Positions 1,521 through 5,732 of a DNA stretch of 21,770 nucleotides are shown piece by piece. A program made the position numbers and the translations under genes. How positions within the stretch are numbered: the stretch's first letter is position 1; the number at the start of each line of letters is the position of its first letter. The DNA is from a virus: the UHGV virus genome UHGV-1845973; one strand, given 5' to 3'. A model generated the notes under the pieces. The model made no database searches and was not told where the DNA came from. It was given only the letters and a program-made list of their open reading frames with translations.

Positions 1521-2326
1521 TGCTTGATTCAATAGGTGAAGTTAAAGCCTTCAAAATTCTGTCAGATGCCGGTATCTCTACACCAGAATCTATAACCATA
1601 AGCCGGGCAGCGTCTGTAAAAGCCTCATCACTCGCCAGCGCCATACAGGGAATAGTTCACGCCGATAAAACCTATCCTGATTCTGTTTCGGCCTGGACTA
1701 CTCAATTGCTTGGCTTTTCTGAACAGCTAAATGAGGCCAGCAAAGCGTCTTCATTACTGGCTGATTCTCTTTCCCCATACACCAAGCCATCAGAGCTGTT
1801 ACAGATGAAGATTGGCTGGGAATGCTACGTAAAAGGTAACGAGCTGACCCCCATACCTGCTTTCGCCCTTGTTGAGGGGATGGGGAATGTTTCCATTCCG
1901 CAATCTCTAACGGACGCATTGACGGCGCTAAAACTTGATGCTCTGAAAACCGCCATGAACGCCATTAACGCAAAAATAGAAGCTGCCGGAAGTGCTGGTG
2001 GTGGTGATAGCAATGGTGGACAGGGTGGTACTGGGGGCGCTCAGGCTCCAGTCATTACTCAGGATGAAATTGATGCTTTACGGGAAGCAGTGACAGCCGC
2101 CGAAGTTTTACTCTCCGAAATTAACTCAGCAAGTGAGAGTGTCGTAGCCCTTACAGGTCGCATTAAAACGTCAACCACTCAGGCAACCAAAGGTTTAGAA
2201 AACGCTGTCGCCATCACGTTAACTGGTTCTCTACTGGATGATGCAGTAATGAGTCCGGCAATCAGTTTAATCATGCCACAAGGCGTTATCGATGCGCTCC
2301 AAAAGAACACCAAAAAGGAACAATAG
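1520..2326 (+). CDS. Hypothetical protein (268 aa), translationally coupled to the PAAR gene
   Basis: The ATG at 1520 overlaps the PAAR stop (TAATG). The ORF-track start at 1421 would overlap the PAAR gene by 100 nt and is unlikely. The protein looks helical, has a central Gly-rich linker (GSAGGGDSNGGQGGTGG) and no TM segment. I recognise no family. Confidence 0.6.
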   Translation: MLDSIGEVKAFKILSDAGISTPESITISRAASVKASSLASAIQGIVHADKTYPDSVSAWTTQLLGFSEQLNEASKASSLLADSLSPYTKPSELLQMKIGWECYVKGNELTPIPAFALVEGMGNVSIPQSLTDALTALKLDALKTAMNAINAKIEAAGSAGGGDSNGGQGGTGGAQAPVITQDEIDALREAVTAAEVLLSEINSASESVVALTGRIKTSTTQATKGLENAVAITLTGSLLDDAVMSPAISLIMPQGVIDALQKNTKKEQ

Positions 2327-2381
2327 CAACACCACTTAGGAACACAAAAGGATGTGAATTGGTACATGTTTAACACCAAAA

Positions 2382-2855
2382 ATGAACCTGAAGAGGATGG
2401 TTTTGAAAAAGATAATTTTGATTGTAATTGCGCTTTTAGCCATTTCTGGAATTTACCGAACAACGACGGCAGTTATCGAACACATCAGGTATGTCCGATC
2501 GCTTGAAGACTCAAAATCACAACTGGAAAGCACGAACAACACGCTTTCTACCGCATTACAGTTAAGTGAGAACGCTCGCTCAGCCATGCTGACCGAAAAC
2601 GAAAGAATTAAAGCACTGGAAAAGGAGTACCAGCGCAAAACAGCAGAACTGAATGCCAACCTAATCAAACAACGAGAGGAAAGCCAGAATGAAATCACTC
2701 GCCTTGAAAATGCGTTACGCCGTGCTGGGATTAACGATGTGCGTGTGCCTGATGACGTTATCAGGATGCAGCGGGAACGGGCAAAAGCCATCAACCAGCG
2801 TGCCAGTGAAAATTACCGTAGAAGCCACCAGCAAGCCGCAGGCAAATCTGATTGA
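2382..2855 (+). CDS. i-spanin (Rz-like inner-membrane spanin subunit)
   Basis: It has an N-terminal TM anchor (KKIILIVIALLAISGIY) followed by a long charged coiled-coil-like periplasmic domain. A lipoprotein ORF is embedded in its +1 frame. The start is ambiguous between 2382 and 2397. Confidence 0.75.
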   Translation: MNLKRMVLKKIILIVIALLAISGIYRTTTAVIEHIRYVRSLEDSKSQLESTNNTLSTALQLSENARSAMLTENERIKALEKEYQRKTAELNANLIKQREESQNEITRLENALRRAGINDVRVPDDVIRMQRERAKAINQRASENYRRSHQQAAGKSD

Positions 2856-3021
2856 TTACTCCCCTTGTTTAGTGCCAGAGGACACGCCAGTGCTGTTAAA
2901 CAAGTATCCGACATACGCTGAACAGTTATTCAGCACGATCGACGAATGCAACCAACGAAACGCACTGAATAACCAAAAAAACAGGGAGATTTGGGAAGGG
3001 AAGGGGGATCAAGGCTCCTGA
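2689..3021 (+). CDS. o-spanin (Rz1-like outer-membrane lipoprotein spanin subunit)
   Basis: The signal peptide ends in the lipobox L-S-G-C (Cys27). The mature part is Pro-rich and contains additional Cys residues. The gene starts inside the i-spanin gene in the +1 frame and extends 166 nt beyond it (overlapped architecture). GAGAGGA lies 8 nt upstream of the ATG at 2689. Confidence 0.75.
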   Translation: MKSLALKMRYAVLGLTMCVCLMTLSGCSGNGQKPSTSVPVKITVEATSKPQANLIDYSPCLVPEDTPVLLNKYPTYAEQLFSTIDECNQRNALNNQKNREIWEGKGDQGS

Positions 3022-3467
3022 AGCCAGATGTCCTGGCTGTCAGCTTCTTCGAAACCGTGACAGACGTTAAAGTCACTCAAGCGATACTGACGCTGACGGC
3101 CTCTATTTCGCTCATGCCAATGCATGTATCCACCAGCAAATGCCAGCGGACAATCACTATAGTCTATGTAACCAATACCATTCCCCAAACGTGCTTCGCG
3201 CGCACCGGCTTTCCAGGACAGTAGAAAAGAGTCACGATCCGCCAGCATAACAACAAAATCGTCCGGATCTCCGATACAGTGAAGAATACCTGCCTTACAT
3301 AACTGCTTGAGCGCTTTGGGCTGGCTCAGGATGTCTTCTCCGTAATACTGAAAACAATCATCAACAACAGCGGGATAGCCTGCCGGGGGATTCAGGCTGG
3401 TTGGTATAGCTGACGCGATCGCCAGCATTAAGCGATATTGTGTTTTTGATGGGTTAACGTGACTCAT
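3009..3467 (-). CDS. Hypothetical protein (152 aa), second gene of the minus-strand cassette
   Basis: SD AAGGGA lies 4 nt upstream of the ATG, which is 17 nt after the upstream gene's stop. The 3' end overlaps the convergent o-spanin gene by 13 nt. A segment PKALKQLCKAGILHCIGD could be a winged-helix. I recognise no family. Confidence 0.55.
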   Translation of the reverse strand: MSHVNPSKTQYRLMLAIASAIPTSLNPPAGYPAVVDDCFQYYGEDILSQPKALKQLCKAGILHCIGDPDDFVVMLADRDSFLLSWKAGAREARLGNGIGYIDYSDCPLAFAGGYMHWHERNRGRQRQYRLSDFNVCHGFEEADSQDIWLQEP

Positions 3468-3483
3468 TTTGTCCCTTGTTTAC

Positions 3484-3918
3484 TCATTGTCGCCATGCAT
3501 TTTTTAACTCAGGAATATCTGCCATTTCAATTAACTTGCGAAGTCCAGCACTGACTTTCCCATTGCCAACCATAGCAAGCCAATCTCTTACAGCTTTCGG
3601 CATGTAGAGCGTTGCAGTTACCGGCTCTTCAACCCTGGCAGGACATCCGCATACAGGCCATTTAATTGACTCCATAACTTCGGATGCCGGGGTGAGGGCG
3701 GGGACATTGAGTATATCTCTACCAGAAAACTGGATAACGATCCGTTCAGCGAGCGAGAGTATCTCACTTTCGGCAAGAATTGATGCCAACTGCGCCTCAA
3801 CAAGAAAGCGACTTGTTGTGTTCAGAGAGTGGCTCTTAGCGCCATTTTTATACGAAACAAAGATTCGATACGCCATAACTCTAATGATTTGTGTTAGAAA
3901 ACTAAAATTAAACCACAT
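3484..3918 (-). CDS. Hypothetical protein with C-terminal ribbon-helix-helix (Arc/MetJ-like) DNA-binding domain
   Basis: The C-terminus TATLYMPKAVRDWLAMVGNGKVSAGLRKLIEMA fits the RHH beta-alphaA-alphaB pattern seen in Arc and Mnt. The N-terminal domain of about 85 aa is unassigned. The start is either ATG 3918 or ATG 3876 (MAYRIF...). A TAAAAT -10-like hexamer lies on the minus strand at 3949..3944. Confidence 0.5.
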   Translation of the reverse strand: MWFNFSFLTQIIRVMAYRIFVSYKNGAKSHSLNTTSRFLVEAQLASILAESEILSLAERIVIQFSGRDILNVPALTPASEVMESIKWPVCGCPARVEEPVTATLYMPKAVRDWLAMVGNGKVSAGLRKLIEMADIPELKNAWRQ

Positions 3919-3964
3919 AACAACATGTGTGTTAATAGATTTTATTTTACTAAACCTATTGACT

Positions 3965-3985
3965 AAATCACAAAGTAGGTATTGT
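3965..3985 (+). promoter_or_regulatory. Candidate -35-less (late-type) promoter: AAATCACAAA-N5-TATTGT
   Basis: The motif and spacing are the same as at 1191 and 20058. It lies 50 nt upstream of the capsid gene start. The adjacent TTGACT (3959..3964) is only 15 nt from the hexamer, which is too close for a normal sigma70 -35. Confidence 0.45.
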
Positions 3986-4034
3986 TAGTCCGTCAAAAGA
4001 ACCTTCACGCCGCGCCCGAATTTAGGGCTTAACC

Positions 4035-5732
4035 GTGAATAAAAACATTCAGCCAGCTCGTGATCGCGAGCGCGAGATTATGAATCGGGCGGCAAGCGTC
4101 ATGGCTATGACCGTCGATCCGACCACCGATGCAGCAGGCAACATGATTGCTGACCAGGCAGTAATGATGGAAAACCTGGATAAAGCAATCCAGAAAGTGC
4201 CTATGTTTGAAGGCGTAAATCCAGAGGTCGCTCGTCAGATCACTGGTGGGTGGGCTATGTCTCTGCATGAGTATAAACGTCAACATGGTCATTACCCGGC
4301 AAGTGACATCCTGGCGAACGCACACATGGCTCTTGAACGCCTAATGACTGAATGTGCCAGTGATACCCACGAAGGCACGGGTAAGGCAATGTTTGAGTCT
4401 GTCGCGCAATCAATGCGTAGCTCTGACGGCGTAATGAAAGTTGCTCAATATGCTGCTCTAATTCTGCCTGCCTCTCTGGGCGCTGCTACCAGTGATGCCT
4501 GTACTTTTGTTCCTTGTGATCGTGACGAGTCAAATATTTATGAACTGGTCAACGTAGCAGGCACAAAATTCGGCACCTTCAAACAAGGTGACGAACTGAA
4601 TATGCAGTCAGCTGGTGTTTATTCTCAAATGAAGCGCCTGTATACCCTTTCCACTAAAGGGGATGGCAGCACCAAAACCTTCCAGTTCGACATCCAAAAT
4701 TTTGAGGGACAATCCTGCCCGCTTCGCGCTGGTTATAGCAAACTGCTGATCAACCGCAAACCGTCCAAAGTTGACGACGGCGATGGCAACCTTTATTTCA
4801 ATGCTAAAGACAGCAAAGGTAAAGCTTTCTCAGCGACTGCCAAAGTCGCCTATGACACTGGTGTCATTGACATTACATTTACCCAGGCTCCGCCAGAAGG
4901 TACTGAAATTGCTGTTCAGGTCGAAATTAACATCGAGCGCAATCCAAGCCTGATTCCTGTGATCAACCAGGCTATGCGTAAGTACGAAGTTCGTCCGTCC
5001 CAGTACGTAATTGCTTCCGAACACACGGTAATGTCCGCATCCGATTTAAGCCGTGAGCACGGCCTTGAATTAGCGGCACTTCAGTTCTCCGCGATGCGTA
5101 ACTGGATCTCCCATGAAACCGACATCATGCGTCTGCGCACCCTGGTATTCCATACCGTTTATGGTCGTGAATTTGATGTGGCTCTGCCGGAAGCTCAAAA
5201 CTATGAGTCCTGGGTCGGCCTCCTGCGTCACGTAGTAAACGCTCTGTCTCAAGAAATGGCAAATCGTACCCTGACAACGGGTATTCGTGGCGGCTTTGCT
5301 GGTGGTGACGCCGCGAACTTCCTGCGCTCTCTGCCTCCACAGCACTTCCAGATCGCACCAGGTTACGTTCAGTCGCCGTATGTACAGTACATCGGCACCC
5401 TGTTTGGCACGATTCGTATTTACGAAGTGCCGCAACCTGTCTGTGAGCAATTCCAGGCACAGGGATATGACTTCGGGCTGGATGACATCTTCTTCTATGG
5501 GCGTGGCGAAGGCATCGGTAAAGCCGGTCTGATTGCTGGTGATGCAGTCCCAGCAATCCCTTACGTGCACGAAACCAATCCGTCTCTCGTTAACCGTACC
5601 ACTCTCTGGGGCAGTGCCATCAACGAAGTACATCCTCGCAACGGTGAAAACTACTTCACCCGCCTGCGTCTGACTCGCGCCAAAGAAGGTGCTATCGACA
5701 TGCTGACAGGCAAGGTTAACGAAAAAAAGTGA
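4035..5732 (+). CDS. Putative major capsid protein precursor (P1 gp23-like, about 62 kDa)
   Basis: It is the first gene of the structural block, followed by an Ig-like decoration-type ORF and the sheath gene. Codon usage looks strongly biased toward high expression (CGT, CTG, GGT, GAA). The size matches my recollection of the P1 gene 23 product. The GTG start at 4035 is uncertain. The function is assigned from synteny and memory, not from a recognised motif. Confidence 0.55.
   Translation: MNKNIQPARDREREIMNRAASVMAMTVDPTTDAAGNMIADQAVMMENLDKAIQKVPMFEGVNPEVARQITGGWAMSLHEYKRQHGHYPASDILANAHMALERLMTECASDTHEGTGKAMFESVAQSMRSSDGVMKVAQYAALILPASLGAATSDACTFVPCDRDESNIYELVNVAGTKFGTFKQGDELNMQSAGVYSQMKRLYTLSTKGDGSTKTFQFDIQNFEGQSCPLRAGYSKLLINRKPSKVDDGDGNLYFNAKDSKGKAFSATAKVAYDTGVIDITFTQAPPEGTEIAVQVEINIERNPSLIPVINQAMRKYEVRPSQYVIASEHTVMSASDLSREHGLELAALQFSAMRNWISHETDIMRLRTLVFHTVYGREFDVALPEAQNYESWVGLLRHVVNALSQEMANRTLTTGIRGGFAGGDAANFLRSLPPQHFQIAPGYVQSPYVQYIGTLFGTIRIYEVPQPVCEQFQAQGYDFGLDDIFFYGRGEGIGKAGLIAGDAVPAIPYVHETNPSLVNRTTLWGSAINEVHPRNGENYFTRLRLTRAKEGAIDMLTGKVNEKK
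5723..5729 (+). promoter_or_regulatory. Candidate -1 programmed ribosomal frameshift heptamer A_AAA_AAG
   Basis: The zero-frame codons are GAA AAA AAG TGA, so the heptamer is in the correct phase one codon before the capsid stop. The -1 frame stays open for 35 more codons, to the TAA at 5834..5836. Confidence 0.3.

Follow-up and report, generated by a model that had tools for sequence, protein, structure and literature searches.

orf52 and orf53 of D6-type phage-plasmids: a probable early operon of a conserved anchor gene and an exchangeable cargo gene

The window analysed here is a stretch of 21,770 nucleotides that matches phage D6 at 98.8% identity; the element that carries it is, by sequence comparison, a D6-like phage-plasmid of the P1 family. 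Phage-plasmids of the D6 type are common in E. coli and Salmonella. Two small neighbouring genes lie on the minus strand between the spanin genes and the capsid gene. Gene 1 is D6 orf52 and gene 2 is D6 orf53, both labelled hypothetical in the D6 record. The original prediction, made from the sequence alone, held that these two and repA are the only minus-strand genes between the PAAR gene and the tail fibre gene. This is borne out by the D6 annotation, in which the only minus-strand genes from upfC/PAAR to sit are orf52, orf53 and the Rep3-type repA. The GC content of orf52 and orf53 is the same as that of the flanking genes. An Rfam scan of the whole window found no RNA family, and in the literature no paper mentions the PHROG identifiers or the D6 accessions of the two proteins. 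The features of the locus are the following.

3007–3487, unstranded: cargo slot, the exact segment swapped in relatives, from BLAST breakpoints against relative L002
3009–3467, minus strand: gene 2 (D6 orf53 family), 152 aa, from its ORF, PHROG 8101, alignment and exact replacement in L002
3009–3021, unstranded: 13 nt shared by the stop region of gene 2 and the convergent o-spanin gene, an Rz1-like lipoprotein ORF at 2689–3021
3472–3477, minus strand: AAGGGA Shine-Dalgarno sequence of gene 2, 4 nt before its ATG, read from the sequence
3484–3876, minus strand: gene 1 (D6 orf52 family), 130 aa, from its ORF, the D6 annotation, PHROG 7830 and family alignments
3877–3918, minus strand: unsupported 14-codon 5′ extension of gene 1, missing in homologues, holding the operator-like site and the predicted −10
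3886–3905, unstranded: putative D6-type C1 operator, core TGTGTTAGAAAAC at 3890–3902 (13/13), over the predicted transcription start
3907–3935, minus strand: candidate early promoter of gene 1, TTAACA (3935–3930), 17 nt, TGg-TTTAAT (3912–3907), read by eye
3944–3973, minus strand: second promoter-like site, TTGTGA-18-TAAAAT, a single scanner match against 1.6 expected, not significant alone
3959–3996, plus strand: probable Lpa-type late promoter of the capsid gene with the start of its leader, including motif TGACnAAATnACAAAGT, which includes the second ACTAAA

Although gene 1 had been read from the ATG at 3918 as a protein of 144 aa, the homologues place its true start at the ATG at 3876 (MAYRIF..., 130 aa), since the M-x-Y start motif is found in 31 of 31 aligned full-length members of the family, PHROG 7830 aligns to residues 15–144 of the longer call, and the Salmonella relative L005 does not conserve the upstream ATG. 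Two of the 31 members have an upstream extension, which resembles an over-called start. The gap between the two genes is 16 nt (3468–3483) and not the 17 nt given before; their tight linkage and the AAGGGA Shine-Dalgarno sequence stand, as does the 13-nt overlap with the convergent o-spanin gene.

The orf52 family has an N-terminal α/β domain with invariant Y3, Y9, G12, S15 and H16. The linker of gene 1 carries WP..G, and the peptide strings WPVCGCP, singled out earlier, and TATLYMPKAVRDWL... are both present in the translation. Homologues of orf52 share 26–81% identity, fall into 42 clusters, nearly all from Enterobacterales, and sit on elements of roughly 55–100 kb where the contigs are long enough to judge. 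The predicted divergence from the capsid promoter region is confirmed, and it is a constant feature: the orf52 homologue is divergent from the capsid gene in all eight lineages examined (D6, Salmonella L005, L014, Citrobacter L028, Pantoea L031, Xenorhabdus L030, Hafnia L033 and Yersinia L034). The arrangement is kept even at 23–35% protein identity, while everything downstream changes. By this conservation, gene 1 is a lineage-conserved anchor, a backbone gene tied to the capsid gene, and not cargo. P1 itself has no gene 1, so the gene is dispensable for capsid expression across the wider family. In hhalign comparisons, neither gene 1 nor gene 2 is related to UpfA or C8, which occupy the equivalent places in P1, and no P1 homologue was found for either the orf52 or the orf53 protein.

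Neither protein has a match in Pfam, NCBIfam or, at E≤1, the PADLOC models, and PDB profile searches with the family profiles of both genes gave nothing significant. Similarities to the Swi6 chromo-shadow (E 0.31) and to LNX2 (E 0.5) in the PDB profile search were rejected as chance. The only PHROG matches, 7830 for gene 1 and 8101 for gene 2, are both function-less entries. For gene 2, which had been said to resemble nothing recognised apart from a possible winged-helix segment, fold searches likewise gave no significant match.

The C-terminal tail of gene 1 is basic (pI 9.4) and had been described as a clear Arc/MetJ-type ribbon-helix-helix (RHH). The tail carries an RHH-like pattern, P-x-x-x-[ST]-x-x-x-P-...-L-xxx-G-x-G..., that is conserved across the 31 members; G104 and G106 are conserved in the family and S109 is frequent. 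In the AF2 model of the monomer (pLDDT 74 overall, about 84 over residues 91–110), residues 85–92 are extended and are followed by helices at 94–103 and 108–118. Against sequences of Arc, CopG and Mnt, hhalign places the tail in the correct RHH register for Mnt and Arc, with probabilities of 0.2–3.3% over the three proteins. Pfam searches with the full protein, with four C-terminal fragments (E≤10) and with the 31 members returned no RHH family; PDB profile searches with the family gave no RHH match, and fold searches with the gene 1 model matched no RHH protein. Gene 1 gives no significant profile match to an RHH family or to a solved RHH protein, and the "clear" RHH is a pattern match. The best guess from the sequence is that gene 1 is a small DNA-binding early regulator, to which the N-terminal α/β domain may add a second function.

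The gene 2 protein is soluble and mildly acidic. Its C-terminal half is conserved, with F81, G88, G95, Y100, F110, G113, H116 and a C136-H137-G138 motif. The family is small, with only 23 representatives among 1.8 billion, and homologues of 32–59% identity lie between cre and ref on nine other viral contigs and in Citrobacter. Elsewhere, gene 2 sits in early operons with cre, ref, dut or rdgC, and PadR- or MarR-like regulators also occur among its neighbours, as do dut and ref. No conserved partner of gene 2 was found across the other lineages. Thirteen Vibrio plasmids (tblastn, E≤1e-3) and phage douglas have gene 2 without a detectable gene 1. Pantoea, Xenorhabdus and about 8 of 119 D6-like plasmids carry gene 1 but no gene 2. 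Plasmid CP147095 has an intact gene 2 beside a gene 1 shortened to a 71-aa C-terminal ORF. Since 30 kb separate the two genes in Citrobacter plasmids and each occurs in plasmid groups without a detectable copy of the other, they do not form an obligate pair. As its distribution indicates, gene 2 is independent, swappable cargo and not an obligate partner of gene 1.

The check that accompanied the original prediction, whether the locus varies among related phage-plasmids, was run, and the slot holds different cargo across relatives. In L002, positions 3007–3487, which correspond exactly to gene 2, are replaced by a 1.6-kb c4/icd/ORF6N module, and L003 has an IS200/IS605 insertion at about 3448–3451. 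Among the eight lineages and the variants within the D6 lineage, seven different contents are found downstream of gene 1, including orf53, a c4-icd-antirepressor module, RelE-type toxin-antitoxin (TA) genes, NinX, a long early operon and nothing. RelE-type TA pairs fill the slot in the Hafnia and Xenorhabdus relatives, and antirepressor modules have been acquired recurrently right beside gene 1. The segment downstream of orf52 is a real cargo hotspot.

Upstream of gene 1, a copy of TGTGTTAGAAAAC lies 13 nt before the ATG. A scan of the whole window with the P1 C1 consensus gave only chance matches with five mismatches, and the match at 3875–3891 was dropped in favour of this de novo motif. No 10-mer is more over-represented in the D6 genome than the one within the putative operator, and at two mismatches or fewer the motif has 16 sites in D6, against 2.8 in shuffles. 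Thirteen of the 16 sites are intergenic, adjoining c1, lpa, icd-ant, hrdC/dmt and ref, and the set of motif-bearing D6 genes matches the annotated C1 regulon of P1. The operator-like site near gene 1 is conserved in L005, L014 and L002, and the c4 insert of L002 carries its own pair of TGTGTTAGAAAAC-type sites. From the distribution of the motif and by analogy with P1, TGTGTTAGAAAAC is taken to be the C1 operator of D6; the repeated operator motif over an operon start that characterizes the C1 regulon is present at gene 1. The hexamers and spacing of the candidate early promoter are kept in L005, while the consensus scanner did not find the site, and its start site would fall inside the putative operator. 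No terminator was found between gene 1 and gene 2. Since a perfect C1-regulon motif covers the predicted operon start, the operon is likely to be repressed in lysogens. The orf52–orf53 operon is probably held off in the lysogen by C1 and expressed early in the lytic cycle, and the prophage-type expression first proposed gives way to this arrangement. The putative operator could also serve the capsid side.

The AT-rich spacer of 158 nt between gene 1 and the capsid gene contains ACTAAA at 3949 and 3962, which had been suggested to be operator half-sites. Shuffled versions of the spacer contain 4.7 repeated 6-mers each and 97% of them have at least one, so the repeat is at chance level; in addition, neither L005 nor L014 conserves the two copies, and that at 3962 lies within TGACnAAATnACAAAGT, which is common to the capsid-side site and the upfC promoter (1186–1202). 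Across lineages, no conserved repeat can be assigned to gene 1. The TGACnAAATnACAAAGT motif is most likely a late-promoter element. P1 has LP23 at the position equivalent to the capsid-side promoter, and conservation of CAAAGT and GTCAAAAG extends as far as Citrobacter and Pantoea. The −10-like TAAAAT attributed to the cassette is present in the second promoter-like site, but such sites show no excess over the 1.6 expected by chance.

The analysis establishes gene structure, conservation, slot variability, the independence of the genes and the operator-like motif; repression by C1, binding of DNA by gene 1 and any biochemical role for gene 2 are inferred. The explanation that fits best, and that seems fairly likely to be correct, is a bicistronic early operon, divergent from the capsid late promoter and probably silenced by C1 in the plasmid prophage, in which an anchor gene is followed by independent cargo. 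C1 would hold the operon off in the plasmid prophage through the putative operator over its start. Throughout the D6 branch of P1-like elements, gene 1 would head whichever early transcript leaves the region upstream of the capsid gene, while gene 2 would occupy in D6 the slot that in relatives is taken by antirepressor modules or genuine TA pairs. Gene 2 is most likely an early accessory protein for host takeover, DNA metabolism or counter-defence. The proposal of an uncharacterised accessory system survives in so far as the genes are real, linked and uncharacterised and lie in a variable slot; a functional two-gene cassette of the TA or abortive-infection type is not supported.

It is unlikely, though worth weighing, that gene 1 instead serves specifically to regulate the adjacent capsid or late operon, or forms part of the immunity circuit in place of P1 functions, such as Lxc, that are not found in D6. 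It would then act at the 158-nt spacer, with gene 2 as a passenger. Such a role would suit a gene whose divergent pairing with the capsid gene outlasts all changes downstream, whose C-terminal tail is basic and RHH-like, and beside which antirepressor modules are repeatedly gained. In the D6 record, neither coi nor lxc has an annotated homologue, and Lxc is reported to be undetected in D6-like phages (PMC6799933). However, P1 expresses gene 23 from LP23 without such a gene, and the capsid-promoter motif also occurs at the upfC promoter, where gene 1 is not a neighbour, so that it looks like a general late-promoter box. The lack of a conserved repeat assignable to gene 1 also counts against this role, and DNA binding by gene 1 is putative. 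A more far-reaching version is improbable: orf52 would be a previously unrecognised early regulator of the D6 branch that links derepression with the expression of late genes or the capsid gene, or with immunity, for instance by standing in for Lxc, and, alternatively or additionally, orf53 would be a new early protein for counter-defence or for modulating recombination.

Little credence can be given to a moron-type defence or exclusion cassette that is expressed from the prophage against other phages. The orientation opposite to the surrounding late genes and the variation of the slot between relatives are what such a cassette would show, and two orphan proteins leave room for a new defence function. 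Against it, a C1-operator-like site lies over the operon start, a terminator of its own was not found, the GC content is that of the neighbours, gene 1 belongs to the conserved backbone, gene 2 is found elsewhere in early operons, and the PADLOC models, which match neither protein, do not bear out the defence locus first suggested. A type II TA or abortive-infection pair, with gene 1 as an autoregulating RHH antitoxin and gene 2 as the toxin, is hardly credible: although two small tandem genes 16 nt apart, an RHH-like motif in the upstream gene and real RelE-type pairs in the same slot of the Hafnia and Xenorhabdus relatives would agree with it, only gene 2 is cargo, the genes are separable and fail to co-occur, gene 2 persists in CP147095 beside a truncated gene 1, no toxin or antitoxin family in Pfam, NCBIfam or PADLOC matches either protein, RHH antitoxins have their RHH at the N-terminus while the RHH-like part of gene 1 is C-terminal, and the operator-like site suggests an operon that is silent in the plasmid state, the very stage at which addiction requires expression.

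The reading as an early operon, in which orf52 and orf53 are an ordinary accessory unit of one anchor gene and one cargo gene, has consequences for annotation. Annotation of D6-type phage-plasmids should treat the two genes neither as one functional unit nor as a module for addiction or defence. In searches for accessory cargo, the slot that follows orf52 can serve as a landmark, where antirepressor modules and TA pairs land in relatives, and the de novo motif TGTGTTAGAAAAC offers a testable map of a D6 C1 regulon that differs from that of P1. Both families are small and lineage-restricted, and nothing points to a new mechanism.

Each of the known systems that the locus recalls shares some of its features. 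Type II TA modules (RelE/ParE with an HTH or RHH antitoxin) also consist of two small tandem genes, but orf52 and orf53 do not co-vary. The RHH regulators P22 Arc, Mnt, CopG and MetJ resemble the tail of gene 1 in their short polar/hydrophobic strand ending in Pro, their helix of about 10 residues, the Gly-rich turn with Ser, the second helix and the basic region. In gene 1, however, the motif is C-terminal, behind an 80-residue domain, its helix A is about three residues shorter, and no profile or fold match is significant. The P1 operons controlled by C1 (ref, dmt/hrdC, ban, kilA-repL and immI c4-icd-ant) are headed by a short asymmetric operator over a σ70 promoter, as this small operon appears to be, and the same D6 motif is found at the D6 homologues of c1, lpa, ref, hrdC/dmt and icd-ant. 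The D6 motif differs from the P1 operator consensus ATTGCTCTAATAAATTT, which it matches at 10 of 17 positions when reversed, and D6 has no good P1-type site; unlike the products of the P1 operons, the orf52 and orf53 proteins have no homologues in P1. Cargo hotspots of phages and phage-plasmids have conserved flanks and interchangeable content, and the D6 slot has both, being flanked at one end by gene 1 plus the capsid gene and at the opposite end by the spanins together with upfB and PAAR. Unlike moron cargo, which has an autonomous prophage promoter, the D6 cargo is apparently read from an early promoter under repressor control.

Gene 1 and gene 2 are best read as an early accessory operon of an ordinary kind, under repressor control, which pairs a conserved anchor gene with an exchangeable cargo gene. 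The original prediction was right that they form a real, tightly linked pair, but they make up neither a toxin-antitoxin or abortive-infection cassette nor a recognisable defence one. The region from 2300 to 4700 is 98.8% identical to Escherichia phage D6, a P1-family phage-plasmid, and 100% identical to one E. coli plasmid. The genes follow in the order parM/stbB, upfC (PAAR), upfB, the i-spanin gene (in which the o-spanin is embedded), orf53 and orf52 (both on the other strand), gene 23 (capsid), an Ig-like gene and the gene for the sheath. Gene 1 is D6 orf52 and gene 2 is orf53, both annotated in D6 as hypothetical proteins, and the o-spanin is annotated there as the shorter orf54.

2382-3021: i-spanin ORF (157 aa, DUF2570 in relatives) with an embedded out-of-frame o-spanin lipoprotein ORF (2689..3021, lipobox LSGC)
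3009..3467, minus strand: gene 2
3484..3876, minus strand: gene 1, 130 aa

As first described, the sequence contains both ORFs, AAGGGA as a Shine-Dalgarno sequence, the hexamer TAAAAT, two copies of ACTAAA and the peptides that were quoted, and the convergent overlap with the o-spanin ORF is indeed 13 nt; the gap between the two genes measures 16 nt, not 17. The start of gene 1 was first placed at 3918. Since an M-x-Y start motif is common to all 31 aligned full-length family members (two bear an upstream extension resembling an over-called start), the PHROG 7830 alignment covers residues 15-144 of the long form, and the ATG at 3918 is not kept in the Salmonella relative L005, the real gene begins at 3876. 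The GC content of both genes is that of their neighbours, and no terminator is found between or after them.

Neither protein has a match in Pfam, NCBIfam or PADLOC, PDB profile searches found nothing for either, and literature searches returned no functional data on them. The gene 1 protein belongs to PHROG 7830 and the gene 2 protein to PHROG 8101, neither of which has an assigned function. The gene 1 family comprises 42 clusters, nearly all from Enterobacterales, with no named member. In the AlphaFold model (pLDDT 74), a disordered WP..G linker joins an N-terminal beta-alpha-beta-beta domain to three helices at the C-terminus. The tail is basic (pI 9.4). Its pattern, P-V-x-A-[TS]-L-Y-M-P-x-x-x-x-D-[WF]-L-x-x-x-G-x-G-x-x-S-x-G-L-R, is shared by 31 diverse members, and P85, P93, L100, G104 and G106 are invariant. 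A "clear" ribbon-helix-helix (RHH) had been assigned to this tail. RHH models of Pfam match none of the 31 members and no isolated C-terminal fragment; hhalign sets the tail against Mnt and Arc in a register that is correct for the structure, but with a probability of at most 3%. The RHH is thus a reasonable lead, not a finding, and DNA binding by the tail, the only mechanistic hint for either protein, is a weak one. D6-like phages are reported to have no detectable Lxc and probably an immunity control unlike that of P1 (PMC6799933), which leaves modest room for gene 1 as a lineage-specific regulator.

Residues 4-16 of gene 1 (about 3829-3867, minus strand) form the invariant motif I-Y-L-S-Y-x-N-G-A-K-S-H, whose weak likeness to the Swi6 chromo-shadow domain segment IYLTWKNGAISH is not significant (E 0.31) and counts as no more than a lead. 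Two natural truncations occur. In CP147095 (L036 2501-2716) a 71-aa C-terminal ORF is left beside an intact gene 2, and in GCA_020366905 (L037 2501-2803) a 100-aa form, having lost the last 30 residues, adjoins a convergent Phage_pRha antirepressor-like gene.

Homologues of gene 1 (23-81% identity) are always divergent from the capsid gene, and the content downstream of them varies as follows.

D6, Salmonella L005 and related locus L014: orf53
Citrobacter: long string of small early genes
Xenorhabdus: NinX, then a RelE/ParE pair
Hafnia: RelE and HTH pair
Yersinia: two small ORFs
Pantoea: nothing

The slot varies inside the D6 lineage too. In plasmid NZ_CP021537 (L002), 3007-3487, precisely gene 2, is swapped for 1.6 kb (L002 3208-4848) that holds a1b1 targets, the antisense RNA c4 (Rfam RF01695, 71.7 bits), an icd-like gene and an antirepressor of the ORF6N type; an immI-like module of this type is also found in search hits H43 and H44. 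The module at this slot is an extra in some D6-like plasmids, and D6 itself carries two icd-antirepressor modules at other places. In CP099081 (L003 1745-3925), an IS200/IS605 element (tnpA and a tnpB-like transposase), inserted at about window position 3448-3451, parts gene 1 from gene 2 and removes the first few codons of the latter. The two genes stand 30 kb apart in Citrobacter plasmid NZ_CP099368, thirteen Vibrio plasmids have gene 2 with no detectable gene 1, and gene 1 occurs without gene 2 in about 8 of 119 D6-like plasmids (scored by identity band). The pair therefore does not behave as one functional unit. This distribution marks gene 1 as a backbone anchor and gene 2 as hotspot cargo, and the suspicion of a hotspot was correct for the slot after gene 1. 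An obligate toxin-antitoxin pair is incompatible with the pattern. Genuine toxin genes of the RelE/ParE type, each with an HTH or HicB-like partner, do occupy the same slot, downstream of the gene 1 homologue, in P1-like elements of Hafnia (L033 5640-6305) and Xenorhabdus (L030 6166-6958).

The gene 2 family is very small; when 1.84 billion representatives were searched exhaustively with its profile, 23 proteins were found, one of them a spurious repeat protein. Homologues (32-59% identity) lie between cre and ref in nine other viral contigs of about 90 kb and in Citrobacter plasmids, with neither gene 1 nor the capsid gene nearby. Vibrio phage douglas carries one in an early operon that also includes an oligoribonuclease gene and rdgC. 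Across the lineages compared, gene 2 has no conserved neighbour.

The control of the operon is suggested by a repeated motif. In a k-mer census, TGTTAGAAAA is the most repeated 10-mer of the D6 genome. Its extended core, TGTGTTAGAAAAC, has 16 sites with at most two mismatches, against 2.8 (maximum 6) in shuffles, and 13 of the 16 are intergenic by the D6 annotation.

D6 genome (MF356679) 197, 4630, 8928, 9084, 10333, 21278, 54219, 64114/64147, 75978, 76648, 80740, 89946: TGTGTTAGAAAAC(TA) sites

Intergenic sites precede c1, at close range, and lpa; others fall between repL and icd-ant, face each other as a pair upstream of hrdC/dmt, flank ref on either side, or occur near pmgS, pdcB and cre. 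In P1 these are the genes with C1 operators, among them the annotated Oref, Omat, Odmt, Oban and Orlf, the others being well established for P1. The c4-icd-ant insert of L002 has its own facing pair just upstream of c4, where P1 has its operator Op51. From these correspondences we infer that the motif is probably the D6-type C1 operator, giving a map of a putative C1 regulon of c1, lpa, icd-ant, orf52, hrdC/dmt, ref, pmgS, pdcB and the cre region.

3890-3902: only perfect motif copy in the window, 13 nt upstream of the gene 1 ATG
3935-3907, minus strand: candidate extended -10 promoter of gene 1 (TTAACA, 17 nt, TGg-TTTAAT; our own reading of the sequence)

The operator-like site is kept in L005 (one mismatch) and L014 (two mismatches); the gene 1 side of the spacer has no better-conserved block. 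Transcription from the candidate promoter would begin inside it; a TTGTGA-18-TAAAAT site found by a promoter scanner lies farther upstream. The operon is therefore most likely kept off by the repressor while the plasmid is a prophage, with early expression on derepression, the reverse of the "prophage-type" expression assumed at first. The ACTAAA pair, earlier suggested as possible operator half-sites, is at chance level, since shuffles of the 158-nt spacer average 4.7 repeated 6-mers and 97% of them contain one or more. Neither copy is conserved in L005 or L014, the second falls within the probable capsid late-promoter element, and a third copy, at 3901, belongs to the operator-like site.

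On the capsid side, TGACtAAATcACAAAGT (3960-3976) has a second copy, TGACgAAATaACAAAGT, ahead of upfC/PAAR at 1186-1202. The 17-nt motif common to these places upstream of the capsid gene and the upfC/PAAR operon, TGACnAAATnACAAAGT, is a candidate D6-type Lpa late-promoter box. Three elements are kept as far out as Citrobacter and Pantoea: CAAAGT, a -10-like hexamer and the leader GTCAAAAG...GCCGCGCCC...GGGCT. The leader GTCAAAAGAAC...CGCCGCGCCCGAATTTAGGGCTTAACC-GTG (3992-4037, with equivalents in L005, L014, L028 and L031) is strongly conserved over the same range; it has a GCCC/GGGC hairpin around the ribosome-binding site, and the capsid gene starts with GTG.

The D6 motif differs from the C1 consensus of P1; when reversed, it agrees with that consensus in about 10 of 17 positions (our own count), and no good P1-type C1 site was found in D6. 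The equivalent place before the P1 capsid gene holds the Lpa-dependent late promoter LP23, whose palindromic -22 box, AAGTGACTT, precedes a TAAAAT. The i-spanin/o-spanin pair is equivalent to P1 ppfA and mlp. In P1, however, the interval from these spanin genes to gene 23 contains upfA, oriR-repA-incA and parAB-parS, all on the capsid strand; the spanin-capsid interval is therefore not conserved even inside the P1 family.
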